The translations under genes were made by a program, and so were the position numbers. Below the pieces are notes generated by a model, which did not search any database, had not been told where the DNA came from, and saw only the letters and a program-made list of their open reading frames with translations. This document shows, piece after piece, positions 751-51,930 of a stretch of DNA of 64,000 nt. The stretch comes from Candidatus Enterousia sp. (GTDB lineage: Bacteria; Pseudomonadota; Alphaproteobacteria; Rs-D84): assembly GCA_045630455.1 (NCBI GenBank), contig JAZQTD010000030.1, positions 50,422 through 114,421 on the forward strand, written 5' to 3'. Position 1 is the stretch's first letter, and every line of letters begins with the position of its first letter.

Positions 751-1338
751 TTATTTGCGTTCCAAGATACCATCGATTAAACCGAATTCTTTTGCCTCAG
801 TCGGGCACATCCAGTTATCACGTTCCATTGCATCAAATAGCTCTTTTTCTTTGCGCCCTGTAAATTCAGACATTTGTTTGATTAATGTCTTTTTATTTTT
901 TTGATACTGGGTTAAACGAATTTCCATATCTGTGATTTGCCCTTCGGCCCCGGCCAATGGCTGGTGAATCATAATCTGGGTATTTGGTAAAACAAAGCGT
1001 TTGCCTTTTTCGCCAGCGGCCAACAATACCGAGCCCATAGATGCAACCAAGCCCATACCGATTGATGATACCGGTGCCTTGATATACTGCATCGTGTCCA
1101 TAATTGCCCAGCCTGCGGAAACATCGCCGCCCGGGGAATTAATATACATAGAAATTTCTGCATTTGGATTTTCTGATTCCAAGAACAGCAATTGTGCAAC
1201 GATACTGTTCGCCATTGCTGGTTCAATTGCGCCGTTAACCATCACAATACGGTCACGCAACAGGCGCGAGTAAATATCAAACGAACGTTCGCCACGTGGT
1301 GATTCTTCGATAACCATTGGTATCAATGCCATAACCAA
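751..1338 (-). CDS. clpP: ATP-dependent Clp protease proteolytic subunit ClpP
   Basis: 195 aa. Typical ClpP sequence: ERSFDIYSRLLRDRIV, INSPGGDVSAG, GMGLVASMGSVLLAAG, IMIHQP. Confidence 0.96.
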   Translation of the reverse strand: MVMALIPMVIEESPRGERSFDIYSRLLRDRIVMVNGAIEPAMANSIVAQLLFLESENPNAEISMYINSPGGDVSAGWAIMDTMQYIKAPVSSIGMGLVASMGSVLLAAGEKGKRFVLPNTQIMIHQPLAGAEGQITDMEIRLTQYQKNKKTLIKQMSEFTGRKEKELFDAMERDNWMCPTEAKEFGLIDGILERK

Positions 1339-23797: not shown

Positions 23798-24232
23798 TTA
23801 GAAAACTTCAGAGGCTACACTCATTGGTGTGTAATCTGGCGATTCTTCAATTGGTGCGCGACAGTTGTTACCTTCAAAACGATAATCTATAACTGTGTGG
23901 TTGTGAATTGTAAATGTTGTTTCGCACCGCAGATGTAGCGTTGTGGGCGATGTGCCTCCAACTGCAGTTGTGTGTGCTGAATATCCTGTAAAAGTTGTAT
24001 GATATGATGGAGATGTGCCAGGAAGCGATACGATTCTTGAATCGCTGAATGTTATGTATTTTATATCTTCAATATCATACGTCCTTATAGGTGTCCCCCA
24101 GCCTTGAATTAAGGCGTGTTCTGGCGCGCCTAACCATGTGCTACACATTTTGTCATATTCTATTGACTGGTCCACGCAAGCGCTTAATCCGCTTGAAACT
24201 ATTATTAAACTAACATAGCTTAATTTATTCAT
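23798..24232 (-). CDS. lipoprotein (hypothetical)
   Basis: 144 aa. Lipobox SSGLSAC. Last gene of a three-gene AT-rich minus-strand operon. Confidence 0.6.
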   Translation of the reverse strand: MNKLSYVSLIIVSSGLSACVDQSIEYDKMCSTWLGAPEHALIQGWGTPIRTYDIEDIKYITFSDSRIVSLPGTSPSYHTTFTGYSAHTTAVGGTSPTTLHLRCETTFTIHNHTVIDYRFEGNNCRAPIEESPDYTPMSVASEVF

Positions 24233-24235
24233 TTT

Positions 24236-24526
24236 TTATCTCCTGTGTATTAAGTAATGCAAATAACTTGCTGTTAAAATATTTAATGTTGCCCAGGTTT
24301 CAGCATCTCTATGTAGTGGAAATATTGGGTTGTAAGTTACTATAAACAGCGTTAGAATTATATATTCTGCTGGGTCTGATATTGTGTGGGCTTTCTTGGC
24401 TTTGATTGTAGACAATATGAGTGTTCCGCAAACCACTATGCGCAATAGTATATAAAAACTATGCGTCATCGGCAAAAACGCGGCCAGAAGAAGTAATGTG
24501 CAGTTTACTGTGAATAAGTGTGTCAT
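24236..24526 (-). CDS. small membrane protein (hypothetical)
   Basis: 96 aa with 3 predicted TM segments. Its start overlaps the stop of the upstream ORF (24523-24526). Confidence 0.5.
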   Translation of the reverse strand: MTHLFTVNCTLLLLAAFLPMTHSFYILLRIVVCGTLILSTIKAKKAHTISDPAEYIILTLFIVTYNPIFPLHRDAETWATLNILTASYLHYLIHRR

Positions 24527-25146
24527 AATCTTTCTTTATCTTGTGTGAATCCATCGGTGATATATTCAATGATTTTTGACACTATAAATGGCGTACAAAA
24601 TGCAAGAGCTAAATATAAAATGCTGTATAATTCAAAATGTTCAAAAAAATTACAACTATAGTGATAGTGGCATTTCCATTCTGTTGTGGATAAGAGTATG
24701 TCCCCTAAGAATCCCGCGACTAAACATAAACGTTTTACACCTGTGTTTTTCGGAGTAAAGTATTTTATACAGTATAATGATATCTTTTTTAACGTAAATA
24801 TACATATTGGGATAATTGTTGCTATGACTGTAGCTAATAATATTTTAACAGATATTTCTAATGATGGATCATACGAAAAAAACGAACCGCACAATGCTAT
24901 AAGGGCACTAGTTGCTGCAGCAAAGTAAATAAATTTCTTATATGTCAATTGTAGTTTTTTTGCTAAATACATAGGAATTGTGTGTATTATGCCAGAACAA
25001 TAAATTACTAACAAAGAAAAGACTATTTTCTGTAAGCCGACAAAATAATCAGATAGCAAGACATGAATTGTAAATACGCTAAATATAAACAAAATAATGA
25101 AACTGAATTTTAACCATTGTCTAGGGAATATATCTTCGTTGCTCAT
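24523..25146 (-). CDS. polytopic membrane protein (hypothetical)
   Basis: About 207 aa from ATG 25146 (RBS AGGAGA 8 nt upstream), 5-6 TM segments. First gene after the structured leader. Confidence 0.55.
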   Translation of the reverse strand: MSNEDIFPRQWLKFSFIILFIFSVFTIHVLLSDYFVGLQKIVFSLLVIYCSGIIHTIPMYLAKKLQLTYKKFIYFAAATSALIALCGSFFSYDPSLEISVKILLATVIATIIPICIFTLKKISLYCIKYFTPKNTGVKRLCLVAGFLGDILLSTTEWKCHYHYSCNFFEHFELYSILYLALAFCTPFIVSKIIEYITDGFTQDKERL

Positions 25147-25378
25147 TTTTTTTCTCCTGCACAAAAATAGACCGCCGGTGGAATTGGCGGTCGGGTGCTT
25201 TCAAAATCATACGATAAATGACCCTGTTGCTTTTGGGCGAACCCTGTTATATAACAACAGACACCCGACCAGTGTGGTCAGGTAATAACGGTGCGATGCA
25301 CCATAAATGGGTTCACGATGCAGACACACCGTATCGTATGGGGTTTGAAAGCCCCGAATCCAATTCCCATCGGATTCA
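25147..25378 (-). promoter_or_regulatory. structured 5' leader with terminator/antiterminator alternative (candidate riboswitch or attenuator, class unknown)
   Basis: Roughly 230-nt untranslated RNA between a near-consensus promoter and the RBS of the 24523-25146 ORF. It contains long-range helices (CATACGATA/TATCGTATG, GCTTTCAAA/TTTGAAAGC), an 8-bp hairpin CCTGACCA-CAC-TGGTCGGG, and a segment GGTCGGGTG that can pair instead with CACCCGACC, which overlaps the terminator 5' arm. Confidence 0.5.
25160..25192 (-). terminator. intrinsic terminator inside the leader
   Basis: The minus strand reads GACCGCC-AATTCCACC-GGCGGTC followed by TATTTTTGTG. It ends about 14 nt before the AGGAGA RBS. Confidence 0.65.
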
Positions 25379-25384
25379 ATGCTT

Positions 25385-25413
25385 ATTATAACTGATTTTG
25401 TATTTGTTTGCAA
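25385..25413 (-). promoter_or_regulatory. sigma70-type promoter of the leader/membrane-protein operon
   Basis: The minus strand reads TTGCAA (25413-25408), a 17-nt spacer, then TATAAT (25390-25385). Confidence 0.6.
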
Positions 25414-25467: not shown

Positions 25468-25477
25468 ACACGACAGT

Positions 25478-25518
25478 GCGCCCTTAGCTCAGCTGGATAG
25501 AGCATCAGATTTCTAATC
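25478..25518 (+). pseudogene. 5' half of host tRNA-Arg(UCU), truncated in the anticodon loop (attL side)
   Basis: GCGCCCT-TA-GCTC-AGCTGGATA-GAGC-A-TCAGA-TTTCTAATC, after which tRNA similarity stops abruptly (GTTCGTAATTCTTATGG...). Confidence 0.85.
25508..25518. repeat. att core direct repeat, left copy (GATTTCTAATC)
   Basis: Identical 11-mer at 42810-42820. Both lie in the tRNA-Arg anticodon-loop sequence. Confidence 0.75.
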
Positions 25519-25646
25519 GTTCGTAATTCTTATGGATAGATTTGGATAAAGATGTATAAATGCTGGATTTGTGCGGGTGCGCGTGAAAATCAGTTCTGTA
25601 TAAAACTTGATACAGATTGATTGAATTATATGTAATTGTATGTATA

Positions 25647-51692: not shown

Positions 51693-51930
51693 TAATCTCT
51701 CCTTGTTGGCATAGTGGGCTGTGCAAAAATAAAACCACCAAGCTGTTCGGGGTGGTCAGGAGGTTAGTGACAATTTACAGGAATTGTGTTGCTTATTCGA
51801 TATATTCGCAAACCCTCCTAACCCAAGTTAGGAGTTATTCCATCAAGACTTTTTATATGTGTCTTGAGGCCTGTAATTTAAGGTCACTACACCTTAGTTA
51901 GCACAGCTTATGCTAACGTTTGTTATGTTA
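51693..51930 (-). promoter_or_regulatory. structured 5' leader with internal terminator-like hairpin
   Basis: The minus strand carries a possible promoter TTGCAC-18-TAACAT (about 51930-51960). It then has hairpins GTTAGCA/TGCTAAC, CAAGAC/GTCTTG and CTCCTAAC/GTTAGGAG (51815-51834). CCACC-N11-GGTGG plus TTTTATTTTT (51725-51755) sits just before the RBS. Confidence 0.35.

Follow-up and report, generated by a model that had tools for sequence, protein, structure and literature searches.

A family of structured leader RNAs with a candidate terminator toggle, found largely upstream of surface-protein genes in Candidatus Enterousia and other gut Alphaproteobacteria

We describe a leader RNA encoded on the minus strand of a 64,000-nucleotide (nt) stretch of DNA from Candidatus Enterousia sp. 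(assembly GCA_045630455.1, contig JAZQTD010000030.1, positions 50,422 to 114,421), the whole of which is called the window here. The RNA spans about 215 nt between a promoter and an intrinsic terminator and belongs to a large family outside Rfam, a new family of a known kind of element, the terminator-based leader switch. That the family is a real, conserved and cis-linked structured RNA we regard as practically certain. We propose, with a probability of about 0.6, that the region is a cis-acting leader in which a termination/antitermination switch gates transcription into the downstream genes. A sequence-only reading of the window had described a structured leader with antiterminator logic in front of a membrane-protein operon; the observation is confirmed, and its interpretation is partly supported.

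Architecture of the leader RNA

Every element of the promoter-to-terminator layout that had been proposed for the minus strand was found in its place. The promoter, TTGCAA and TATAAT with a 17-nt spacer, scores 10/12 in a promoter scan, and the inferred transcription start lies at about 25378-25377 (minus strand). The terminator was missed by a terminator scan because the scan allows loops of at most 8 nt and the loop here has 9. The leader had also been said to lack a credible open reading frame (ORF), and this holds: the sole minus-strand ORF spanning it, of 68 amino acids (aa), begins with a TTG at 25413, inside the -35 box, and the family has no conserved upstream ORF.

The fold is not a chance one. 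The 239-nt leader reaches a minimum free energy of -102.5 kcal/mol, compared with -65.2 +/- 5.1 kcal/mol for 200 dinucleotide shuffles, none of which folded as well (z -7.3). The covariance model of the family, R1, gives the RNA strand of the window copy 168.6 bits (E 2e-46) and the opposite strand 12.5 bits. Homologues and covariation, which had been named as the check on the proposal, are both abundant, with about 135 copies of the RNA and heavy covariation in a model-based alignment of 101 distinct sequences, A4. This alignment is the basis for the statistics on the nested structure, which comprises nine helices (the 5′ hairpin, X:X′, LR2, Pa1, Pa2, A:B, P2a, P2b and the terminator). Across A4 the nested structure is 94.8% paired, and 51 of its 56 pairs show changes on both sides; its covariation score is 0.421, against 0.174 for shuffles (0/500 as high) and at most 0.064 for slid controls. 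The parts of the leader are listed here from 5′ to 3′ in window coordinates, with the percentage of pairing and the number of pairs with double-sided changes.

25385-25413, minus strand: sigma-70-type promoter, -35 box TTGCAA at 25413-25408, 17-nt spacer, -10 box TATAAT at 25390-25385
25163-25377, minus strand: whole leader RNA, about 215 nt
25356-25377, minus strand: 5′-terminal hairpin GAAUCCGAU-GGGA-AUUGGAUUC (helix 1; 96.4%, 8/9 pairs)
25340-25355, minus strand: local hairpin X:X′, GGGG...CCCC (helix 2; 90.3%, 4/4 pairs)
25344-25352, minus strand: 5′ strand of LR1, GCUUUCAAA, supplied by the X:X′ loop; partner 25205-25197
25332-25340, minus strand: 5′ strand of LR2, CAUACGAUA; partner 25216-25208 (helix 3; 95.9%, 9/9 pairs)
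25316-25331, minus strand: hairpin Pa1, CGGUGU-GUCU-GCAUCG (helix 4; 97.7%, 6/6 pairs)
25289-25303, minus strand: hairpin Pa2, UGGUGC-AUC-GCACCG, then a conserved UUAU (helix 5; 90.2%, 6/6 pairs)
25275-25283, minus strand: segment A, ACCUGACCA, the 5′ arm of A:B (helix 6; 89.7%, 6/7 pairs)
25261-25271, minus strand: segment B, UGGUCGGGUGU, whose partner is either A or C
25224-25260, minus strand: two-part hairpin P2, CUGUUGU / UAUAUAAC internal loop / GGG-UUCG-CCC / AAAAG / CAACAG (helices 7 and 8; 95.4% and 97.7%, all pairs)
25208-25216, minus strand: 3′ strand of LR2, UAUCGUAUG, overlapping an invariant UGAUUU
25197-25205, minus strand: 3′ strand of LR1, UUUGAAAGC, just 5′ of segment C
25189-25197, minus strand: segment C, CACCCGACC, partner of B; its GACC is common to C and the 5′ arm of the terminator
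25163-25192, minus strand: intrinsic terminator, GACCGCC at 25192-25186, 9-nt loop AAUUCCACC, GGCGGUC at 25176-25170, UAUUUUU at 25169-25163
25144-25158, minus strand: Shine-Dalgarno sequence AGGAGA at 25158-25153 and ATG of the first gene at 25146-25144

Two long-range helices had been predicted, and both of the underlying complementarities, CATACGATA with TATCGTATG and GCTTTCAAA with TTTGAAAGC, are present in the window leader. LR2 carries four to six pair types at most of its positions. LR1, which is not in the model and was judged by duplex energy and on unfitted alignments, is 87% paired, with double-sided changes in 4/6 pairs. The prediction needs amendment for LR1: because X:X′, whose loop supplies one of its strands, itself covaries (GGGAC/GUCC and GGGGU/ACCC are compensatory examples), LR1 is a pseudoknot in most members of the wider family. 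An alignment-free test, in which the duplex energy of matched partners was compared with that of shuffled partners over 74 de-replicated RNAs, gave -16.8 kcal/mol for LR1 and LR2 together against -6.3 kcal/mol for shuffled partners (z -36). G-U pairs are frequent in the helices of the family, and RNAalifold on MAFFT alignments recovered the structure in part.

Pa2 is a near repeat of Pa1. Across the Pa region the minimum-free-energy fold of the single window sequence misleads: it joins CGGUGUG to CGCACCG, where the family consensus has Pa1 and Pa2 as hairpins in tandem. In most members the Pa1 loop is the GNRA tetraloop GAAA. Over this region (25331-25289 in the window) the consensus reads CGGUGC-loop-GCAUCG-UAA followed by CGGUGU-loop-GCACCG-UUAU, so that the two stems are nearly identical. 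Conservation of sequence beyond what pairing demands makes Pa1 and Pa2 look like a ligand pocket with pseudo-symmetry or like paired sites at which a dimeric protein binds. A GAUG 3′ of Pa1 could, in many copies, be an alternative partner for the CAUC in the 3′ arm of Pa1.

Alternative pairings around the terminator

The 3′ half of the leader contains three segments, A, B and C, of which B can pair with either of the others. In the window, A and B form the hairpin CCTGACCA-CAC-TGGTCGGG (equivalently CCUGACCA-CAC-UGGUCGGG), and the B sequence GGTCGGGTG (GGUCGGGUG; 25270-25262) is complementary to segment C (25197-25189). The B:C helix is absent from the model, and on A4 it is 97% paired; its two distal pairs vary as GC 77, UA 11, GU 4 and as AU 48, UA 16, GC 13, GU 13. 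When matched and shuffled partners were compared over the 74 RNAs, both helices stood out (B:C, z -11.5; A:B, z -4.6). The segments also change together: the triple A457/B533/C722 occurs as C-G-C in 71 sequences, G-U-A in 8, A-U-A in 3 and G-U-G in 2, and A461/B529/C726 as G-C-G in 60, A-U-G in 14 and G-U-G in 8. A:B and B:C, the rival pairings that had been picked out in the window, are both present and both kept by selection, with three-way covariation at one B position.

Equilibrium folding of the 3′ half only, from A onwards so as to avoid the pseudoknots, suggests how these helices might follow one another. Over the 74 RNAs, before the 3′ arm of the terminator exists, the mean probability of B:C is 0.79 and exceeds 0.5 in 60/74; at full length the mean probability of the terminator is 0.80 and that of A:B 0.54. 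For the window copy the corresponding values are 0.99 for B:C early and then 0.99 for the terminator and 0.94 for A:B. At the level of predicted folding the switch logic of the sequence-only reading is thereby reproduced. The modelled populations are those of a default-OFF expression platform, where whatever stabilises the B:C junction would give read-through. We infer that B:C is the antiterminator helix and that segment A, which takes B from C, is the anti-antiterminator.

We propose the following sequence of events. During transcription A:B would be the first to form. As C emerges it can displace A, and the resulting B:C helix would close a three-way junction resembling that of sRNA-Xcc1 (see below) and tie up GACC, four of the seven nucleotides of the terminator 5′ arm, so that polymerase reads through. 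If no stabilising input arrives, the 3′ arm of the terminator would retake GACC, B would return to A and transcription would stop, releasing a compact RNA of about 215 nt. B:C could be stabilised by a small molecule or second messenger, in which case the leader would be a riboswitch, or else by an RNA-binding protein or another RNA, and candidate contacts for the effector are the sequence-conserved tandem hairpins and the junction loops.

The terminator is tied to the rest of the fold by a further contact. In the window copy, GGAAUUGG (25367-25360), from the loop region of the 5′ hairpin, can pair with CCAAUUCC (25187-25180), from that of the terminator. Terminator loops in the family are long, with 8-14 nt between ACCGYY and GRCGGU, and the best match between the two loops averages 5.96 nt, against 5.22 nt for shuffled partners (maximum 5.44 in 200 shuffles). 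The complementary loops covary: GGAAUUGG/CCAAUUCC in the window leader, GCAAAAU/GUUUUGC and GGGACAC/GUGUUUU in relatives, and AAGCUGU/ACAGCUU in a second window copy described below. Loop pairs differ between the two window copies and also between two copies that lie in tandem at one other locus (L010). The terminator loop is thus conserved because it pairs with the 5′ hairpin loop. Such a kissing contact might strengthen a terminator with a large loop, stabilise the released RNA, or prevent interference between copies.

Distribution of the family and the genes behind it

Copies with strong covariance-model scores come from Candidatus Enterousia, from other gut alphaproteobacterial metagenome-assembled genomes (MAGs) and from metagenome contigs. 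Among representative genomes of 185,579 species, the exact 22-mer of the 5′ hairpin occurs at 15 loci, 14 of which carry the label of a gut alphaproteobacterial or Candidatus Enterousia MAG; the fifteenth is on a 2.5-kb contig labelled Muribaculaceae. A second pattern, independent of the 5′ hairpin, found at least 120 metagenome loci and only two matches in 2.9 million viral contigs, and with so few viral matches a phage-borne element was rejected. A blastn search of the leader against plasmids gave no match, and model R1 applied to the retrieved DNA gave 104 and 41 matches. Rs-D84, the order to which Enterousia belongs, has genomes of less than 1 Mb and is predicted to consist of obligate symbionts or parasites (PMC12306168).

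The layout is constant from copy to copy. Each is its own transcription unit, with a near-consensus promoter placed so that the RNA begins with the 5′ hairpin: the best match to the -10 box ends 6-7 nt before the first G of the RNA in 86/97 copies, and in 81/97 it agrees with TATAAT at five or more of the six positions. The 5′ hairpin is followed by the pseudoknotted core, the A/B/C toggle, the kissing terminator and, about 25-30 nt on, the start of a gene. The terminator stem is followed in every copy by five or more T residues within 10 nt, and a same-strand ORF starts within 200 nt in 117 of the 121 copies with enough flanking DNA, most commonly 23-32 nt from the stem. The orientation of the leader relative to promoter and gene is fixed. 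Since the U-run abuts the ribosome-binding site and leaves no room for another promoter, the downstream genes appear to need read-through.

The genes themselves are of many kinds. The proteins behind the leaders are mutually unrelated, 72/117 have an N-terminal hydrophobic signal, and most are without a Pfam match. Those matches that were found point to the surface and envelope (Flg_new repeats in six proteins, an OMP beta-barrel, Chlamydia PMP repeats, a YadA anchor, BspA leucine-rich repeats, Opacity and OmpA porins, DUF285) or to glycan modification (family-2 glycosyltransferases, Acyl_transf_3). With controlled genes that are mostly of surface, secreted or glycan-modifying type and vary between copies, the family has the look of a shared control module for a variable cell surface. 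It had been suggested that the transporter-like genes behind the window leader could hint at a ligand. This does not hold up, as the RNA precedes many unrelated genes for surface and secreted proteins; not being specific to the operon, it allows no ligand to be deduced from it. At several unrelated loci (L021, L029, L097, L100, L104, L085 and others) the downstream gene encodes a signal-peptide protein with a common N-terminal motif like (T/P)TSK(S/N)YVD, which we take to resemble the N-termini of phage tail-fibre or trimeric-adhesin proteins. At L005, L017 and L018 there are spurious downstream ORFs resembling those typical inside rRNA genes.

Comparison of individual loci shows that leader and gene do not travel together. 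Homologues of the 207-aa protein encoded directly behind the window leader are very rare: there are seven, and three of their loci are informative. At L001, where the first protein is 95% identical, the ends of the leader are identical and the core has diverged, with pairing kept by compensatory changes. At L003, where the first protein is only 30% identical, the leader is far closer to that of the window (0.91 on a rough alignment measure). At L002, with a first protein 74% identical, the core of about 200 nt is absent, and the promoter, a degenerate terminator-like hairpin and the ribosome-binding site are kept (L002 1-110); loss of the core with retention of promoter and ribosome-binding site is as expected for a regulatory part. 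Since similarity of leader and similarity of protein disagree among these three loci, we conclude that the RNA is a module independent of the gene behind it. L002 retains CAAUUCCCAUCGG, a remnant exactly complementary to the CCGAUGGGAAUUG that the other copies carry in their 5′ hairpin loop.

In two instances near-identical RNAs precede entirely different genes, with similarity ending a few nucleotides past the U-run (the window copy and L006; L001 and L009). As far as the sequences tell, this pattern points to cassette exchange or gene conversion in which the leader would serve as a conserved 5′ boundary. At four loci (L010, L024, L026 and L063) two leader-plus-gene units lie in tandem or divergently within a few kilobases, and cassette arrays therefore look common. 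The window, too, contains a second copy. It is highly divergent and was scored by R1 with filters off (17.2 bits, E 0.0018), in an alignment that covers the 5′ hairpin, X:X′, LR2, A:B and the terminator. By eye, this copy also has A:B (CUCCUAAC/GUUAGGAG), B:C (GGUUAGGAGG/CCUCCUGACC), a terminator (GACCACC/GGUGGUU) and a kissing pair (AAGCUGU at 51909-51903 with ACAGCUU at 51746-51740). Its B and C contain GGAGG/CCUCC, not GGGG/CCCC, and so divergent a copy implies that the true family is broader than the search pattern. The remaining features of the window, and the paired units for which positions are given, are as follows.

23798-25146, minus strand: operon downstream of the leader, encoding the 207-aa multi-pass membrane protein (5-6 hydrophobic segments, no Pfam match), a 96-aa DUF6804 membrane protein and a 144-aa lipoprotein with an LSAC lipobox
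23792-23775: bidirectional terminator closing the operon
51734-51917, minus strand: second, highly divergent copy of the family, upstream of a secreted-protein operon
L010, 3946-4177 and 5364-5595: paired leader-plus-gene units
L024, 413-619 (minus strand) and 828-1040 (plus strand): paired leader-plus-gene units

The window leader lies in host DNA, immediately beyond the left boundary of a 17-kb island by which a tRNA-Arg gene is split, and it points away from the tRNA; its neighbour at 25477-25520 (plus strand) is the 5′ half of the split tRNA-Arg(UCU). Leader units often adjoin tRNA genes (the window, L001, L003, L023, L068, L069, L117 and L122).

Relation to known elements and competing explanations

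The sequence-only reading had found no class for the RNA, and at the gathering thresholds of Rfam 15 (4227 covariance models) this stands: the only matches in the window are two tRNAs, and 20 diverse relatives gave no gathering-level match apart from tRNAs. In its 3′ half there is a resemblance below threshold. When the riboswitch, T-box, ribozyme and leader families of Rfam 15 were searched in E-value mode, the only matches were at chance level apart from one to sRNA-Xcc1 (RF02221; sRNA, small RNA), whose full model aligns with the 3′ ~90 nt of the window leader (25270-25181) at 44.0 bits (E 2e-6), short of its gathering cut-off of 53 bits. Among another 20 loci there was one sub-threshold match, at 36.6 bits, and in the reverse test the family model gave a weakly positive 8.6 bits on a true Xcc1. 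In this alignment P1 of Xcc1 corresponds to B:C (GGUCGGG.../...CCCGACC), the A-rich internal loops of P2 have counterparts (UAUAUAACA / AAAAG here, AAUACAAUA / GAAUA in Xcc1), and a P3 position follows. P1 and P2 of the putative three-way junction covary in our family. P3 is possible as an alternative pairing in the LR2 3′ region (GGUCA/UGAUU in the window, AAUCA/UGAUU in the family) and is 97-99% canonical; its variation is one-sided only, and it overlaps LR2 and LR1, which covary. The differences are considerable. The leader described here is 2.5 times longer, adding the 5′ hairpin, X:X′, the tandem hairpins and segment A; the regions that form the P3 loop and J3/1 in Xcc1 serve LR2 and LR1; and the 3′ end of the RNA is an intrinsic terminator, the loop of which kisses the 5′ hairpin.

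sRNA-Xcc1, an integron-cassette RNA of Xanthomonas campestris, was reportedly described by Chen et al. in 2011 as a trans-acting sRNA. The true Xcc1 that we examined (72.6 bits with the same tool; L139 1198-1320, on the Pseudomonas aeruginosa plasmid NZ_CP093017.1) lies 38 nt upstream of a same-strand BRO-family gene, and its P3 segment CCUCUGCUUGG is exactly complementary over 11 nt to CCAAGCAGAGG, a stretch that includes the Shine-Dalgarno sequence of this BRO gene. In Xanthomonas integrons Xcc1 is found upstream of symE and in the same direction (10.1101/2025.06.18.660453), and in APSE phages an ORF6N gene follows Xcc1 directly (10.1101/2020.03.17.996009). This arrangement suggests that Xcc1, besides any role in trans as an sRNA, may be a translational leader that acts in cis. 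As a lead only, since the cis reading of Xcc1 comes from one sequence and the literature, the shared three-way junction could be a cis-regulatory sensor module, wired to the ribosome-binding site in Xcc1 and to the terminator here.

In organisation the leader is closest to riboswitches that act on transcription and to attenuators that depend on a protein. Its fold, conserved, complex and sensor-like, comes directly after the transcription start, so that a structured domain stands between that start and a terminator preceding an ORF; of two mutually exclusive helices that are both conserved, one, the closing helix, overlaps the 5′ arm of the terminator with its 3′ strand; and a third segment would restore termination. 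As with some riboswitches, multiple copies stand before surface-structure genes. The nearest by biology are the cyclic di-GMP (c-di-GMP) riboswitches of classes I and II, which occur in many copies per genome before adhesin, pilus and flagellar genes. The family has no match in sequence or structure to any riboswitch class of Rfam 15. We know of no riboswitch or attenuator class in which the terminator loop takes part in a conserved tertiary contact. Leaders of the JUMPStart/ops-RfaH, LoaP- and UpxY-dependent systems resemble the family in that a conserved 5′ leader is common to unrelated, horizontally exchanged operons for surface structures and that expression requires terminators to be overcome; they differ in having a short DNA or RNA tag where the family has a large structured RNA. 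An ops/RfaH leader was rejected as a candidate: GGCGGTAG is absent, and AG follows GGCGGT in 0/131 copies (TT in 72, CT in 27).

Several points weigh against a termination/antitermination switch. A4 is biased towards the nested structure that was supplied to the covariance model, and the search pattern fixed UGAUUU, CCCGACCG and GRCGGT, so that conservation of these bases is no evidence. The three-way covariation may reflect few evolutionary events, because the first triple comes mainly from one subclade. The exclusivity of B:C and terminator, as it had been proposed, holds in so far as GACC is shared with the terminator 5′ arm; the overlap is only 4 nt, and a shortened B:C could coexist with the full terminator, stacked end to end. 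The kissing contact makes the terminator hairpin part of the fold, and this would also suit a stable RNA that is released to act by itself. The downstream genes have no common metabolic theme that would hint at a ligand. Finally, copies are present in RNA libraries, as metatranscriptome contigs contain relatives, but these contigs run past both ends of the RNA and may include DNA, and they carry no information on termination.

The possibility just raised, that the terminated transcript of about 215 nt is itself the product, a free-standing sRNA that acts in trans or as a protein sponge or scaffold while read-through is incidental, strikes us as improbable. It would account for the strong promoter and efficient-looking terminator of every copy, for the terminated fold that the full-length RNA adopts at equilibrium, and for a kiss between the end hairpins that could make a closed, nuclease-resistant particle; moreover, the closest Rfam family is filed as an sRNA. 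An independent sRNA gene, however, would not keep the same arrangement before unrelated genes, and in the 117 copies with a same-strand gene the ribosome-binding site follows within a few nucleotides of the U-run. Both alternative helices are under selection, which a static sRNA would not need, and the true Xcc1 itself has a gene close behind it and a complement to that gene's ribosome-binding region.

We consider it equally improbable that the RNA is a constitutive 5′ module, a folded untranslated region (UTR) that stabilises or insulates the mRNA and doubles as a recombination anchor for surface-gene cassettes, like JUMPStart. A stem-loop at the extreme 5′ end is a classic mRNA stabiliser, as in the ompA 5′ UTR, and the variable surface proteins downstream, the tandem and divergent arrays, and the near-identical RNAs whose similarity breaks off right after the U-run would all be at home in this scheme. 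Yet an anchor or stabiliser needs neither some 60 covarying pairs nor pseudoknots, nor exclusive helices that overlap a terminator, and a strong terminator would be counter-productive in a constitutive 5′ UTR.

That the repeats are an element of the DNA, a sequence like a miniature inverted-repeat transposable element or a recombination site whose inverted repeats only mimic RNA helices, is highly improbable. The many copies, the likeness of the end hairpins to each other as imperfect inverted repeats, and L002, which looks like an 'empty' site, are what such an element might leave. Against this, the orientation to promoter and gene is always the same, the frequent G-U pairs and the low score of the opposite strand are those of an RNA, compensatory changes keep the helices as the sequence drifts, no target-site duplications were seen, and viral contigs and plasmids yielded the two matches and none, respectively. 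Least credible of all is an attenuator in which translation of a short upstream ORF across A frees B for C: in the window copy a frame of 31 codons does run from an AUG in the 5′ hairpin loop to a UGA inside A, but no Shine-Dalgarno sequence precedes this AUG, most copies have no AUG in this loop, an ATG ORF of at least eight codons ending near A occurs in only 21 of 74 non-redundant copies with scattered starts, and indels between copies do not keep frame, so that for want of a conserved upstream ORF this mechanism is largely refuted.

The termination/antitermination switch thus remains our preferred reading. Literature searches found no description of the leader RNA, which is not proof that it is undescribed. 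With about 60 covarying base pairs, pseudoknots and a built-in toggle, the family is a new orphan RNA whose complexity is comparable to that of validated riboswitch classes, and it is therefore directly testable by in-line probing and termination assays. The genes behind the leader most likely mediate contact between these uncultured gut Alphaproteobacteria of reduced genome and their partners, and the leader may therefore be the main regulatory handle on the cell surface. The conserved kiss between 5′ hairpin and terminator loop may show how tertiary contacts tune termination, and the link to Xcc1 suggests that an RNA known for 15 years as trans-acting may be a cis-acting leader of mobile-element genes.

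A more ambitious idea, which we offer tentatively and think rather unlikely as a whole, is that the family represents a novel regulatory RNA class, in which a double-pseudoknotted sensor with an Xcc1-like three-way junction at its base passes a cellular signal to the whole variable surface-protein repertoire of Rs-D84. If so, the input to the sensor would be a second messenger or a dedicated RNA-binding factor, the loop-loop 'address' of each copy would tune termination or keep copies from interfering with one another, and sRNA-Xcc1, in the cassettes of integrons, phages and plasmids, would be this sensor in a minimal, cis-regulatory form.

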